Shown here: positions 26,448-35,723 of the stretch, one piece after another
Position numbering within the stretch: position 1 is the first letter of the stretch
How the letters are laid out: each line of letters begins with the position of its first letter
Source: a virus
Lineage: Duplodnaviria > Heunggongvirae > Uroviricota > Caudoviricetes
DNA length: 38,459 nucleotides
Strand: one strand, 5' to 3'
Virus record (IMG/VR): IMGVR_UViG_2896607866_000012
Coordinates: 1-38,459 of that record
Program-made: the position numbers and the translations under genes
The notes under the pieces: model-generated
What the model was told of the DNA's origin: nothing
The model's input: the letters and a program-made list of their open reading frames with translations, nothing else
Database searches by the model: none

Positions 26448-27276
26448 GACGATGCCCTCCGCTGATATTCAGGAGACGGTGAATATGAAAATTAGCCTTA
26501 TCCGCCAAACGGATACGTTCAGCCTGCAAGTTAAGAAGGGTTTCTACCAGAACCTGATGCGCCTGCGGATCCGAAAGAGTTACCTTGCGCAGAGCACGTA
26601 GTGCAGTTGTTACATAACTGAGTTTATGTAAGTCTTCATCATTCAGACGAGTGAGGGCTGGGACAGTAGCCATGATGGCAGCCTCCGATAACAGTGAATT
26701 ACCTTCACCACCGGAAACGCCAATTTCGCTGGTGGTGAACTGAACGGGGTTGGCGTAACCGGCGTTATCGGAAACCGGCGCACCTTTCAGTGCCCCCGTC
26801 CAGCCCACCATAATTTGGGTGTGCGCAGACGCAGACGATAAAAAAGACGCTGGCGCGTCATATATCGCCGATAACATTTCCAGGACGCCAATCCCGGCAC
26901 CCGCTTTATAAGGTGCCTGAACAGTGTAACGTCCCGGAATGGCAGAATCAATGTGCTGGTGGTCCTTCACACTCAACAAAATCACGCCTGAATTTCCACA
27001 AAGGACTAAAGCACTCATGCGGGTAGTCTTTGCGAAGATAGATAACGCGCTGTGTTTCTGGCTCCCAACGAATAACATGGACATAAAGCCCTCTTCCGTC
27101 ACGAAACCAGCGGTTAAGTTCCTGCACAACTCGCCCCCCACAGTCAGGTAAAGTTCTCTGTGGTTACTTACAGCCAGGTGATTTGGTAATCTGCATTCAT
27201 GCCGTAACAACAGGTGTTCAGCGACACTGACCACCAGCTGTTGCGACAAACGGTTATTTGCCGTTAAACTGTTCAT
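26440..27276 (-). CDS. hypothetical protein, 278 aa
   Basis: ORF in early-right operon between CII-like and replication genes; no recognised motif. Confidence 0.35.
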   Translation of the reverse strand: MNSLTANNRLSQQLVVSVAEHLLLRHECRLPNHLAVSNHRELYLTVGGELCRNLTAGFVTEEGFMSMLFVGSQKHSALSIFAKTTRMSALVLCGNSGVILLSVKDHQHIDSAIPGRYTVQAPYKAGAGIGVLEMLSAIYDAPASFLSSASAHTQIMVGWTGALKGAPVSDNAGYANPVQFTTSEIGVSGGEGNSLLSEAAIMATVPALTRLNDEDLHKLSYVTTALRALRKVTLSDPQAHQVLVETLLNLQAERIRLADKANFHIHRLLNISGGHRHA

Positions 27277-29302: not shown

Positions 29303-29421
29303 TTTTTTCAGGTAACTCGTCGGCATCGCAGAAACAACAACGCTCGATCTGAAGTGGCACACTGAATTTGGCCACCTGAACAGAGGTGATATGCTCACCT
29401 CAGAACAACACAGGTGCTCCA

Positions 29422-30590
<1,169 letters not shown>

Positions 30591-30717
30591 CCACTTCAAT
30601 CATGTTGAAAGCCGATTCGTAGAACTGTTTTTGCTGAGTGTCGCTGAGACAGGAAAAGAGCGACGTTACGATGATTTTATTAATTGCATTATCAAGTTCT
30701 TTTTCATCAAAAGTCAT

Positions 30718-31154
30718 TTGATTTTCCTTTTATGTATACGGGCTTAAAAGGATACCACCGAGCCTGAAGTGGTGAAAAGACAGGCACATAACAGCTAAGT
30801 ATTTTCAACCAAAGAGAATCCTTAGCGTTGTGGTGAATGCGGCTCAGCGCACGCGGGTTAAGGTTGAGGCTGACAGTCGACCTTCTGTGGATACCCACCC
30901 GTCTGGTGTGCAACCTTCGCCAGGCACCGGGAGGCACCCGGCACCACAACTTTATGCTGTGTGTAGTCCTGGCGGTACCAGTTTGTACCCTTGCTTCCGG
31001 CTGGTACCGTCCTTTTTACAAAACAGAGAAGAGCATCACCGGACGACGGGCTCATAACCCAATCCATCCGGGCGGCTGCCACCGCAGGTGTTCTTCTCTG
31101 TTTTGTGGAGAAACTAATCGGCCTTGCAGGGTCGATATGATGAGGAGCAGCAAA
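30718..31154 (+). other. GC-rich structured non-coding block (candidate regulatory RNA)
   Basis: No credible ORF; nested inverted repeats including a 15/16 bp stem (31018..31033 with 31091..31106) and CGGTACCAG / CTGGTACCG (30973..30981 / 31001..31009). Strand assigned by operon direction only. Confidence 0.3.
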
Positions 31155-31256
31155 ATGGCTAGCGAACGCAGTACTGATGTGCAGGCATTTATCGGGGAGC
31201 TGGACGGCGGCGTATTTGAAACCAAAATCGGCGCAGTTCTCGGTAATGACTCCAAC

Positions 31257-31760
31257 TTACTGATAGTGTTTTATGTTCAGATAATGCCCGATGACCTTGT
31301 CATGCAGCTCCACCGATTTTGAGAACGACAGTGACTTCCGTCCCAGCCTTGCCAGATGTTGTCTCAGATTCAGATTATGTCGCTCAATGCGCTGAGTGTA
31401 ACGCTTGCTGATAACGTGCAGCTTTCCCTTCAGGCGTGATTCATACAGCGGCCAGCCATCCGTCATCCATACCACGACCTCAAAGGCCGACAGCAGGCTC
31501 AGAAGACGCTCCAGTGTGGCCAGAGTGCGTTCACCGAAGACGTGCGCCACAACCGTCCTCCGTATCCTGTCATACGCGTAAAACAGCCAGCGCTGACGTG
31601 ATTTAGCACCGACGTAGCCCCAATGTTCGTCCATTTCAGCGCAGACAATCACATCACTGCCCGGTTGTATGCGCGAGGTTACCGACTGCGGCCTGAGTTT
31701 TTTAAGTGACGTAAAACCGTGTTGAGGCCAACGCCCATAATGCGTGCACTGGCGCGACAT
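31257..31760 (-). CDS. insB: IS1 InsB frame (InsAB' transposase by frameshift)
   Basis: 167 aa ORF ending ...[10 protein letters not shown], 15 nt from IS end. Confidence 0.85.
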
Positions 31761-31954
31761 CCGACGCCATTCATGGCCATATCAATGATTTTCTGGTGCG
31801 TACCGGGCTGAGAGGCGGTGTAAGTGAACTGTAGTTGCCATGTTTTACGGCAATGAGAGCAGAGATAGCGCTGATGTCCGGCAGTGCTTTTGCCGTTACG
31901 CACCACGCCTTCAGTAGCGGAGCAGGAAGGACATCTGATGGAAATGGAAGCCAC
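31679..31954 (-). CDS. insA: IS1 InsA
   Basis: 91 aa [23 protein letters not shown]...; starts 56 nt from IS end. Confidence 0.9.
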
Positions 31955-32358
31955 GCAAGCACCTTAAAATCACCATCATACACTAAATCAGTAAGTTGGC
32001 AGCATTACCCAGTTCTCAGTGAAGTCGCTTCCGGTGTGATGAACACGAAAACCAAAGGTAAGGTCTCACTCAACCTGGAAATCGAACCATTTGATGAGAA
32101 CCGTGTGAAAATCAAACACAAACTCTCATATGTTCGCCCGACTAACCGTGGGAAAATTTCCGAAGAAGACACCACCGAAACGCCGATGTATGTCAATCGC
32201 GGTGGTCGCCTGACTATTCTGCAGGAAGACCAGGGACAATTACTGACTCTTGCCGGTGAGCCTGACGGAAAACTCCGCGCAGCAGGTCATTAATATCGTT
32301 CTTAATTAACTGATTATTTATCTCATCACTGAATATCTTAATATAGTGAGGACTTATT

Positions 32359-33084: not shown

Positions 33085-33759
33085 ATGAATTCCCAGACAA
33101 CAAAAGATATTCCCTGCTTCCGTTCTTATTTGCCTGATGCCCTGCGTTTAAGATTTGAAGATAAACTGACCATCCGGGCCATCGCTCAGCGTCTGGGTCT
33201 CAGTCATTCCACAATACATACGCTTTTTCAGCGATTTCTTGCATCCGGTATCGCATGGCCATTGCCCGATTCAGTTTCATTCGCTCAACTTGACGCCATC
33301 CTTTATGCCAACAGAAAGAAGGAATTAACAGAGCCTCAAATCAGAGAAGGCTCATGGCGAAAAGAACGGCGAACCAGCTATAGCCGTGAATTTAAGGTCC
33401 GTCTGGCTAAGCAGGCGTTACAGCCTGGGGCTGTTGTTGCCCGGATCGCCAGAGAACACGATATCAATAATAACCTGCTGTTTAAATGGAAAAGCCAGTA
33501 CGAGGACGGCTTACTGAGCGATGATGACATACAGGAATGCATGCCTGTCCCGGTGGCTCTGACTGATACGCCGGAGCCGACCAGACCAGTTACAAATCCC
33601 TTCTGGCGTAACAAGCATGATGAGCGCCCTGAGGGGGCTCCCGGAAACGTCCCACGGTGCGAGCTGCATCTTAAATCAGGTGTGGTAAAACTGTTTGACC
33701 CTCTCACTCCGGAACTGTTACGGGCGCTAATCCGCGAAATGAAAGGGGGTATCCGATGA
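33085..33759 (+). CDS. IS66-family TnpA-like accessory protein
   Basis: C-terminal half shows the IS66 Orf1 pattern (YSREFKVRLAKQALQPGAVVARIAREHDINNNLLFKWKSQYEDG); N-terminal extension, so true start uncertain. Confidence 0.55.
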   Translation: MNSQTTKDIPCFRSYLPDALRLRFEDKLTIRAIAQRLGLSHSTIHTLFQRFLASGIAWPLPDSVSFAQLDAILYANRKKELTEPQIREGSWRKERRTSYSREFKVRLAKQALQPGAVVARIAREHDINNNLLFKWKSQYEDGLLSDDDIQECMPVPVALTDTPEPTRPVTNPFWRNKHDERPEGAPGNVPRCELHLKSGVVKLFDPLTPELLRALIREMKGGIR

Positions 33760-34103
33760 TAACGCTGCCGACCGGTACCAAAATCTGGATCATCGCTGGC
33801 ATCACAGATATGCGTTGTGGCTTCAATGGCCTGGCTTCGAAGGTGCAGAACACGCTGAAAGATGACCCGTTCTCCGGGCATATCTTCGTCTTCCGGGGCC
33901 GCAGTGGCAAAATGGTGAAAATACTGTGGGCCGATCGTGACGGGTTATGCCTGTTCGCCAAACGCCTGGAACGGGGCCGCTTCGTCTGGCCGGTGACCCG
34001 GGAAGGGAAAGTGCACCTGACGCCAGCTCAGTTATCCATGCTACTGGAGGGGATCGCGTGGCAACATCCCAAACGGACAGAACGGCCTGGCATCCGGATA
34101 TAA
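33756..34103 (+). CDS. IS66-family TnpB (Orf2)
   Basis: 115 aa; start overlaps tnpA stop (ATGA). Confidence 0.8.
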   Translation: MITLPTGTKIWIIAGITDMRCGFNGLASKVQNTLKDDPFSGHIFVFRGRSGKMVKILWADRDGLCLFAKRLERGRFVWPVTREGKVHLTPAQLSMLLEGIAWQHPKRTERPGIRI

Positions 34104-34122
34104 CCCGTGATAAAACAAGGGA

Positions 34123-35723
34123 ATGAACAATGAACTCCCCGATGATATTGAGCTGCTTAAAGCCATGTTGCGTAAGCAACAGAGTCGGCTTCGACAGTAT
34201 GCCTGTCAGGTCGCGGGCTATGAGCAGGAAATTGAACGGCTGAAAGCGCAACTCGACAGGTTGCGTCGTATGTTGTTCGGCCAGAGTTCAGAGAAAAAGC
34301 GTCATAAGCTTGAAAATCAGATCCGACAGGCAGAAAAACGACTGTCGGAACTGGAAAACCGGCTGAACACAGCCAGAAATCTTCTGGAAGATGCATCGTC
34401 AGTCACAGATTCACCTGACACCAGTCCCCCGTCAGAAAACCCGATCGCCAGTAAGCCTGAATCCCCGGGACGAAAATCTTCACGAAAACCGCTGCCGGCA
34501 GAACTTCCCCGGGAGACACATCGCCTTCTGCCTGCTGAAACCAGTTGCCCGGCCTGTGGAGGTGTTCTGAAAGAAATGGGGGAAACAATCTCAGAGCAAC
34601 TGGATATCATTAATACCGCCTTTAAAGTTATCGAAACCATACGTCCCAAACTGGCCTGTAGCCGGTGTGATGTCATCGTTCAGGCACCACTTCCCCTAAA
34701 CCGATCGAACGCGGTTATGCCAGTGCAGGGTTACTTGCACGGATCCTGGTCAGCAAATATATGGAACATATCCCTTTATATCGCCAGTCAGAAATATACG
34801 CGCGACAGGGCGTGGAGCTGAGCCGTAATACCATGGTGCGCTGGGTATCAGAAATGGCAGACAAACTCCGTCCTCTGTATATAGCGCTGAATGACTATGT
34901 TCTGGAGGCAGGAAAGGTGCACGCAGATGACACTCCGGTGAAAGTACTGGCCCCGGGGAACGGAAAGACGAAAACGGGTCGTCTGTGGGTATACGTCAGG
35001 GATGATCGTAATGCGGGTTCATCCCTGCCGGCAGCCGTCTGGTTCGCGTATTCGGCAGATCGCAAAGGAGAACATCCGCAGCTCCACCTGGCAAAGTATC
35101 AGGGCGTACTGCAGGCTGATGCCTATGCAGGTTATAACGTACTGTACGAAACGGGCCGGGTGAAGGAAGCCGGGTGCCTGGCCCACGCCCGCCGAAAAAT
35201 CCATGACGAGGATGTGCGCCGTCCGACAGAAATGACTCAGGAAGCGCTCAGACGGATAGCAGAGTTATACGACATAGAAGCGGAGATACGTGGCAGTCCG
35301 GCAGAGGAACGGCTTGCAGTCAGAAAAGCCAGAAGCGTCCAGTTGATGCAGTCGTTGTACGACTGGATACAGTTGCAGAGGAAAACGCTGTCGAAACATG
35401 CGGAGATGGCGAAGGCGTTCGACTATATCCTGAATCACTGGAATGCGCTGAACGAGTTCTGTCGTGACGGCTGGGTGGAAATAGACAACAACATCGGTGA
35501 AAACGCGTTACGATCGGTGGCGGTTGGAAGAAAAAATTATCTCTTTTTCGGCTCAGACAAGGGAGGAGAAAGTGCGGCGATCATCTACAGTCTGCTGGTC
35601 ACCTGCAAACAGAACGAAGTGGAGCCGGAGGACTGGTTGCGCGAAGTGATCGAGAAGCTCAATGACTGGCCGTCGAACCAAGTGCATGAACTGCTGCCCT
35701 GGAACTTCTCGTCTGTAAAATAA
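34123..35723 (+). pseudogene. IS66-family transposase TnpC, frameshifted
   Basis: N-terminal zinc-finger part (34123..34821) and catalytic part (34761..35723) are in different frames; switch lies at C4 run 34693..34696. Confidence 0.7.

Follow-up and report, generated by a model that had tools for sequence, protein, structure and literature searches.

The DNA analysed here is IMG/VR virus record IMGVR_UViG_2896607866_000012, positions 1 to 38,459, which is a Shigella flexneri SfV prophage. This whole stretch of 38,459 nucleotides (nt) is called the window. Its positions 30718-31154 form a block that is 100% identical to S. flexneri phage SfV and belongs to the early-left operon, which runs from cI towards xis/int. 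In SfV, cro is followed from cI onward by genes that all lie on one strand: cI, orf33, the block, orf32 (yfdP), orf31 (yfdQ) and, further on, xis and int. An earlier sequence-only reading had placed the block on the early-left transcript just before yfdP, and this placement holds; in the window the block is flanked by an IS911 insertion and by a yfdP gene split by IS1. The block carries a non-coding plus-strand RNA element built from known parts: a scaffold of the STnc100/PasD type, a seed of RprA, and a terminator and putative processing helix of the DicF type.

SfV, e14, ST64B, 118970_sal3, phiES15 and phiNP all carry the block or a homologue of it after a cI-like repressor gene and in the same orientation as that gene. 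ST64B and 118970_sal3 are Salmonella phages carrying it at the same place. In Cronobacter phage phiES15 it stands upstream of kil, and Citrobacter phage phiNP likewise has it downstream of a cI-like repressor. The e14 copy of E. coli K-12 lies directly upstream of xisE and is annotated as an open reading frame (ORF), ymfH. At this place these phages have 600-1000 bp with unannotated sequence or hypothetical ORFs only. Among 5,426 complete E. coli genomes, 2,921 match the block, 1,849 of them with at least 80% of it covered, and the copies are annotated as nothing, as "hypothetical protein" or as ymfH. The element is real, conserved and very widespread, and it is either unannotated or mis-annotated as an ORF. 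In expression data, ymfH belongs to the SOS/e14 "YmfT" iModulon, where it co-varies with intE, xisE and ymfJ, and it has been described as a member of an intE-xisE-ymfH operon (PMC12132413).

The three inverted repeats picked out by the sequence-only reading were all recovered in place. A fourth, which it had missed, is a 9/9 repeat (GTTGTGGTG / CACCACAAC) that encloses most of the upstream part and coincides with scaffold helix P1 (Table 1). The block had also been called GC-rich, which is true relative to its neighbours: the core (30827-31113) has 57.1% GC against about 45% in the flanking early genes. It is not true overall, since the block has 52.2% GC and the window 52.5%.

The long hairpin is far more stable than chance would give, and it folds better on the plus strand. 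On that strand, 31010-31115 reaches -51.2 kcal/mol, compared with -25.8 +/- 3.3 for shuffled sequences (z = -7.8; 0 of 200 shuffles as good). The long hairpin is weaker on the minus strand (-46.7 kcal/mol, z = -5.0). For the upstream 226 nt alone the energy is only marginal (z = -2.1), so the reality of that part rests on comparative evidence. A search for covarying substitutions in homologous prophages, proposed by the same reading, found compensatory changes in the scaffold, the pseudoknot, the terminator and the hairpin.

Table 1. Features in and around the block (window coordinates; MFE, minimum free energy; aa, amino acids; IS, insertion sequence)
Feature	Position	Strand	Remarks
IS911	29350-30598		3-bp duplication ATC; about 120 bp upstream of the block; parts the block from orf33 and cI
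Conserved left-edge block	30754-30786	undecided	ACCACCGAGCCTGAAGTGGTGAAAAGACAGGCA; left edge of the element in many phages
5' hairpin	30794-30826	+	GCUAAGUAUUUUC / GAGAAUCCUUAGC; inverted repeat I4 and MFE fold; directly before scaffold P1
Scaffold domain, STnc100/PasD type	30827-30950	+	124 nt; five helices and a pseudoknot
Scaffold P1	30827-30835 / 30942-30950	+	
Scaffold P2	30839-30854	+	
Scaffold pseudoknot	30860-30866 / 30911-30917	+	AAGGUUG / CAACCUU in the P4 loop
Scaffold P4	30901-30908 / 30918-30925	+	
Scaffold P5	30927-30941	+	CCGGG-AGGCA-CCCGG; the CCGGG-N5-CCCGG hairpin of the sequence-only reading
Single-stranded seed	30955-30968	+	UGCUGUGUGUAGUC; identical to RprA nt 61-74
Rho-independent terminator, DicF type	30971-31012, UUUUU 31013-31017	+	GGCGGUACCAG / CUGGUACCGUCC; inverted repeat I7
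Inverted repeat I7	30973-30981 / 31001-31009		CGGTACCAG / CTGGTACCG; 9/9
Candidate frame of about 50 aa	30991-31140		window ORF; TTG start
Three-way-junction hairpin	31013-31111	+	about 100 nt
Inverted repeat I1	31018-31042 / 31082-31106		25 nt; 84% complementary
Basal stem of the hairpin	31018-31037 / 31087-31106	+	20 bp
Basal stem extension	31013-31017 / 31107-31111	+	terminator U-tract pairs with GGAGA and lengthens the basal stem
Hairpin branch 1	31039-31071	+	conserved
Hairpin branch 2	31072-31085	+	variable
Small hairpin	31118-31135	+	
Shine-Dalgarno sequence of yfdP/orf32	31142-31147	+	GAGGAG
Start codon of yfdP/orf32	31155-31157	+	ATG; SfV annotation, L002 4438 = window 31155
IS1	31242-32009		768 bp; duplication cagttctc; splits yfdP; ends and target duplication read from the sequence
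Multi-ORF IS-like element	about 33085-35723		after yfdQ

The scaffold can be recognised by comparison with Rfam. At gathering thresholds nothing in the block matches, and C4 and isrK elsewhere are the sole matches in the window. In a permissive scan, 30805-31020 aligns to the full STnc100 model (RF02076, positions 1-206) with 39.5 bits and an E-value of 5e-7 locally or 2.5e-5 for the whole window. Sub-threshold STnc100 matches of 29-41 bits are found in all five homologous loci.

Helices P1 (nnnUGGUG/CACCAnnn) and P2 covary. The window P2 falls in a second class, GCGGC/GC-CGC, that fully compensates the commoner CCCCC/GG-GGG. P5 keeps a constant loop, AGGCA, and covaries in its stem between CCGGG/CCCGG, CCUGG/CCAGG and GGUGG/CCACC. 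As a side observation, the e14 copy (ymfH, locus L003 3082-3393) has a damaged P5 hairpin, CCGGG-GGCA-CCCGA.

A pseudoknot joins the strand just 3' of P2 to the P4 loop. The Rfam consensus structure lacks it, and within the literature searched it appears to be unreported. It reads AAGGCUG/CAGCCUU in phiES15, CAGUUAA/UUAACUG in Qin-type copies, and AGACUGACAAA/UUUGUCAGUCU or CAGAAC/GUUCUG in others; an alignment-free comparison gives more than 12 distinct covarying sequence pairs. In a 14-sequence alignment (A4), both partners have changed in seven of its nine pairs, and every cell of the core pairs is paired. For the A4 structure as a whole, 84% of cells are paired, compared with 29-42% in slid controls. 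Changes of both partners are seen at 17 pairs, and none of 500 shuffles does as well. A formal covariation count for P4 is impossible on A4, because loop lengths vary by class and MAFFT loses the register; all of the support for this helix comes from the alignment-free listing.

Further copies of the scaffold were collected by scanning IMG/VR with the invariant 20-mer CCGGGAGGCACCCGGCACCA. At least 120 loci were retrieved, and across them more than 15 tails with no relation to one another follow the shared 5' domain. A terminator closes most of these tails, and some tails lead directly into an ORF. In most contexts the scaffold lies 20-70 nt upstream of an intrinsic terminator.

Downstream of the scaffold is the seed, a single-stranded stretch that agrees with RprA at 14 of 14 nt. 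The RprA sequence was verified against annotated rprA, and nt 61-74 are the unpaired stretch of processed, 47-nt RprA. These last 47 nt are a functional regulator (PMC9262595). In six phages that were retrieved by homology, not by the seed, the seed varies at only two positions, and the terminator stems next to it are replaced outright. In a scan of viral contigs, the seed proved to have many different terminators after it and no fewer than eight kinds of 5' domain ahead of it. In a genome scan across Enterobacterales, the seed-plus-GGCGG arrangement was found in Escherichia, Shigella, Citrobacter, Enterobacter, Klebsiella, Raoultella, Serratia, Erwinia, Pectobacterium and others. Mimicry of the RprA seed by a phage appears to be unreported within the literature searched.

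The terminator stem is fully compensated in other phages, for instance as GUCGGCGUC/GACGCCGAC in ST64B and GCCCGC/GCGGGC in phiES15. The U-tract is on the same strand in every copy. The three-way-junction hairpin that follows is known in 21 distinct variants, all of which keep the 20-bp stem, a conserved branch 1 (CACCGGRCGACGGGCUCAUAACCCAAUCCAYCCGGGC) and a second branch of 14-50 nt. Across these variants 94.7% of cells are paired, compared with 42-52% when slid, and 0 of 500 shuffles reach the observed value. Ten pairs are compensatory, such as C-G 10 / A-U 9, A-U 14 / G-C 6 and A-U 11 / G-C 9 (counts of each pair). The hairpin can be assigned to plus-strand RNA because a U.G wobble at pair 26:104 is kept in 20 of the 21 sequences. 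By its length and by analogy it is a putative RNase III processing site.

The sequence-only reading held that the block resembles no RNA it could name. This was not borne out: the 5' two-thirds match Rfam STnc100, the seed equals 14 nt of RprA, and the terminator shares homology with the DicF terminator. Prophages encode STnc100 and PasD, small RNAs (sRNAs) that are akin to each other (bioRxiv 10.64898/2026.05.13.724894) and are usually found downstream of Q or stx (bioRxiv 10.64898/2026.05.13.724894; PMC12370729). PasD has been confirmed as an sRNA by Northern blot, depends on Hfq and has targets identified by RIL-seq (PMC8550237). The window shares with them the GGUGAAU junction, a P2 hairpin with a bulged A, the hairpin CCGGG-AGGCA-CCCGG and a P1 closed by UGGUG/CACCA, as well as a variable tail and terminator after the scaffold and a home in lambdoid prophages of Enterobacteriaceae. 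Thus the core fold of P1, P2, P5 and the junction is present in the scaffold domain, with P1, P2 and P5 covarying across classes. The window differs in its class of P2, in a pseudoknot outside the Rfam consensus, and in its seed and terminator. Its context is also different. Instead of a late operon, downstream of Q, stx or moron genes, the element of the window and of five other phages sits in the early-left operon after a cI-like gene.

In DicF (RF00039), RNase E forms the 5' end; the 3' end comes from termination, which gives 53 nt, or from RNase III, which gives 72 nt (PMC5069750). The operon position of DicF matches that of the element: a cI/DicA-like repressor gene precedes it, and genes of the kil/dicB type or for recombination follow. 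The two share a homologous terminator hairpin (GGCGGUA(U/C)CAG...) with a long helix immediately 3' of it. A DicF proper would score at least 48 bits and include the ftsZ-pairing 5' region; the window scores a weak 15.7 bits, aligning with the terminator half only, while the e14 copy reaches 28.5 bits and locus L147 reaches 38. The layout of DicF is present in the window, namely a repressor-proximal early operon with a terminator and then a 20-bp helix of a size suited to RNase III, at which cleavage is predicted. The differences are that the DicF seed is UUUCUGGUGACG and that of the window UGCUGUGUGUAGUC, that the scaffold is 5' of the seed in the window but 3' of DicF in Qin, and that the long helix of the window encloses another inner domain.

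An instructive comparison is a Qin-like locus of O157:H7 (L232 2051-2206), where DicF (76.7 bits) is directly followed by a scaffold copy (STnc100, 39.8 bits). The P1 of this copy is a helix of about 20 bp (GUGAAUUUUGUGAUGUGGUG / CACCACAUCACAAAAUUCAU), and its 3' end abuts the dicB ribosome-binding site. The published 72-nt RNase III end of DicF would fall inside this helix, because it is 19 nt when counted beyond the 53-nt end. Qin DicF and the window therefore have in common the order seed, terminator, helix of about 20 bp, next gene. In three other loci (L147, L236 and L249), DicF or an RprA-seed version of DicF likewise has the scaffold directly after it. RefSeq annotates nothing at the scaffold that follows DicF in Qin-like loci.

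The resemblance to RprA (RF00034) is confined to the 3' part, where the same unpaired 14 nt stand directly upstream of a Rho-independent terminator. The 70-bit score and the rpoS-pairing hairpin region of RprA are missing. Furthermore, the locus is distinct from chromosomal rprA and lacks a promoter under Rcs/Cpx control, and its terminator is DicF-like, not RprA-like. Some other phage copies share the RprA terminator: phiES15 reaches 41 bits on the RprA model, and further phage copies with an RprA-like terminator reach 47-56 bits, the gathering score being 70. The latter include near-full-length RprA-like RNAs in IMG/VR phage contigs (L154 3706-3806, L165, L155 and L157). In L154, a hairpin resembling a tRNA T-arm (CCGGUUCGAUUCCGG) takes the place of the second RprA hairpin. 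T-loop hairpins are also found upstream of the scaffold in 118970_sal3 and phiNP. tRNA and tmRNA were rejected as candidates for the element: despite the T-loop-like hairpins, ARAGORN calls none in seven related loci.

These observations can be combined in a model, to which a probability of about 65% is given. The block would be a non-coding sRNA module of SfV/e14-type lambdoid early-left operons, yielding a DicF-like, Hfq-type sRNA that is cut from the operon transcript. A sRNA gene joined to a processing site is also the best reading of what the sequence-only reading had listed among its candidates. In 30400-31300 no sigma-70 promoter was found on the plus strand, promoter-like and terminator-like matches being on the minus strand only. 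For this reason the element is inferred to be transcribed with its operon, from downstream of cI towards xis/int. Where transcription stops at the terminator, the product would be an sRNA with a U-tail, the usual Hfq-binding 3' end. Read-through transcripts would be cut by RNase III in the 20-bp basal stem, which would free the sRNA and give the yfdP mRNA a new 5' end. Such a step would mirror the published biogenesis of DicF in the Qin prophage. The 5' end would arise by endonucleolytic processing, of the RNase E type as in DicF. Either of two products may result: an RNA of about 215 nt that keeps the scaffold, or a short one made up of seed and terminator, comparable to processed RprA. Its seed would pair in trans with the host mRNAs that are recognised by the RprA 3' seed. 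In effect, the phage would deploy a copy of a host envelope-stress regulator.

An alternative is that the block encodes a small protein, either a ymfH-like ORF or a peptide of about 50 aa (a small membrane peptide or type I toxin), with the hairpins as structure of the surrounding mRNA. RefSeq annotates the homologous DNA as ymfH in K-12 and in many genomes as "hypothetical protein", sometimes marked "frameshifted", and the K-12 product would hold two hydrophobic stretches. In addition, a ymfH clone triggered the retron-Sen2 toxin RcaT (bioRxiv 10.1101/2020.06.22.160242). However, the K-12 frame is not kept. It requires two frameshifts in SfV, meets stops within 20 codons in ST64B and 118970_sal3, and is broken by indels of 1, 2, 5 and 7 nt in phiES15 and phiNP. 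The active agent in triggering retron-Sen2 may instead be ymfH RNA, because the ORF is not conserved. A second candidate frame starts with an N-terminal peptide that is alike across phages, ...GT(A/V)LFT(K/Q)QRRASPDDGLITQS..., but this frame can be as short as 10 aa or exceed 60 aa. Its C-terminal halves are in different frames or stop inside the branch 2 insertion, and the conserved "peptide" is exactly the nucleotide-conserved helix arm plus branch 1. No ORF over the block has a Pfam match. Variable columns by codon position (12/18, 10/17 and 12/17) show no third-position excess, and many changes are non-synonymous yet compensate base pairs. The most suggestive evidence for translation is in the enlarged terminator loops of many relatives, where a good Shine-Dalgarno (SD) sequence and ATG-TTC open a mini-ORF. 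In seven of them (L234, L237, L241, L250, L235, L248 and L004) the motif SD-N-GAAGATA-ATG-TTC is conserved. A small helix, UCUUC/GAAGA, presents the SD sequence in such loops, and the mini-ORF of 10-60 aa crosses the terminator 3' arm, the U-tract and the long hairpin. The copies of the window, SfV and e14 are without this SD sequence and ATG. The loop motif could be a device for translational coupling or unfolding. Taken together, a small protein is quite unlikely, and the block is non-coding. The claim that it has no plausible ORF stands in that sense, although ORFs of 75, 161 and 49 aa do exist, none of them conserved. The ymfH annotation is formally a co-linear protein gene in homologues, which the sequence-only reading had named as evidence that would count against its view of the block, but the annotated ORF fails every conservation test run.

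The block might also act in cis only, as a terminator/antiterminator checkpoint that gates yfdP through xis/int, with a put-like or riboswitch-like scaffold and the terminated RNA as a by-product. The scaffold does resemble a specific binding fold, with invariant junction nucleotides, a pseudoknot and variable helices, and its usual position shortly upstream of an intrinsic terminator suits this role. These phages have no obvious N homologue, and orf33 has no Pfam match. Put RNAs, of about 70 nt with two stem-loops and a triplex, occur in the same operons (PMC9378689). HK022 put is likewise a cis-encoded structured RNA, found upstream of terminators in the early operons of an N-less lambdoid phage. 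It differs in lying just after pL and pR, and a put homologue was rejected on architecture (124 nt, five helices and a pseudoknot in the window) and for want of sequence likeness. Several findings make a purely cis-acting checkpoint rather unlikely. The seed is kept to the nucleotide while terminator and scaffold are exchanged, unlike a mere linker, and seed plus terminator also occur without any scaffold. The Qin-type scaffold comes after the terminator and not before it, no convincing antiterminator alternative pairing was seen, which leaves the riboswitch version a minor rival, and the family member PasD is an Hfq-bound sRNA (PMC8550237). It is extremely unlikely that the block works as DNA, for instance as a recombination or attachment site (the former also named by the sequence-only reading), an origin or a palindrome bound by protein. 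Duplex DNA contains the inverted repeats just as well and the e14 block adjoins xis/int, but the conserved G.U wobbles, such as pair 26:104, would be A.C mismatches on the other strand. Moreover, the plus strand folds better, the U-tract never changes strand, pairing is kept while the stem sequence drifts, which is opposite to protein-binding sites, and the att sites of these phages are elsewhere. The compensatory changes indicate plus-strand RNA.

Some observations weigh against the sRNA model itself. The STnc100 score of the window is below the gathering score of 47. Neither the DicF nor the RprA model reaches its gathering threshold, and with the RprA covariance model no match in the window was found at E <= 10. 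The scaffold also stands directly before ORFs (dicB is one), in which case neither seed nor terminator follows it. The mini-ORF in the terminator loops of many relatives suggests some part in translation, for which the model has no explanation. Cleavage by RNase III is argued solely from helix length and the analogy with DicF. Targets of the seed inside the phage, sought in the window with up to three mismatches, are at chance level only. Finally, a phage-encoded RprA-like RNA or this element is not described in the literature searched (ymfH, ST64B sRNAs, RprA-like).

Given that it is also found ahead of ORFs, dicB among them, the scaffold is more than an sRNA body and probably acts as a general-purpose cis module that affects processing, stability or the polymerase. 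A bolder proposal, which is tentative and on balance doubtful, is that the STnc100-type scaffold is an unrecognised pseudoknotted cis module of this kind in lambdoid phages and one of several interchangeable chassis by which phages deploy copies of host sRNA seeds. In that case, the shuffling of seeds between host and phage sRNAs (the RprA seed here, the DicF seed elsewhere) would amount to a general hijacking of host regulons. The cassette-like shuffling of scaffold, seed and terminator is new within the literature searched.

If the sRNA model is true, the RprA 3' seed is mimicked by the product of a prophage module that is very common. Prophage induction would then be linked to RprA-controlled curli and biofilm formation, conjugation control and regulation of the nitrate response. 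Phage sRNAs would prove to be put together from cassettes (scaffold, seed and terminator) in varying combinations. ORFs of the ymfH type would be re-annotated, a pseudoknot would be added to the structure of STnc100/PasD, and the known RNase III site 3' of DicF would be placed within a conserved helix.

The left edge of the element is less clearly part of the RNA. The block ACCACCGAGCCTGAAGTGGTGAAAAGACAGGCA is near-invariant in 38 distinct loci with unrelated left flanks and lies about 40 nt from the start codons of unrelated divergent minus-strand genes. In four loci (L180, L184, L206 and L222) an RprA-like seed follows directly after it and the scaffold is absent. On the minus strand, TTCACC-16 nt-TGGTATCCT (TGGTATnCT) is a possible extended -10 promoter for a divergent ymfI-like gene. 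Alternately, as RNA, the block could form an H-type pseudoknot from CCAC/GUGG and GCCUG/CAGGC with an A-rich loop; the candidate stems are invariant, so there is no covariation in them. The 5' hairpin next to it is weakly supported as part of the element, and ST64B has a different hairpin, UAAGAG/CUCUUA, in its place.

At the other end, no stop interrupts the yfdP frame of the window upstream across the entire block, and the resulting ORF has 161 aa (30837-31322, plus strand). This probably explains over-long yfdP or "hypothetical protein" calls, such as the 534-bp coding sequence in 118970_sal3. The early-left operon of the window is degraded by three insertions of IS elements. Since IS911 cuts off the upstream operon and IS1 splits yfdP, this Shigella copy may be silent or mis-expressed.

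Elsewhere in the window, at 26728-26916 on the minus strand, a C4 antisense RNA (79.8 bits) stands beside isrK (63.7 bits), with a weak match to the c4 a1/b1 target. This pair is a P1/P7-type, immI-like antirepressor control module within the SfV prophage. ST64B carries the same isrK (L004 19-95).

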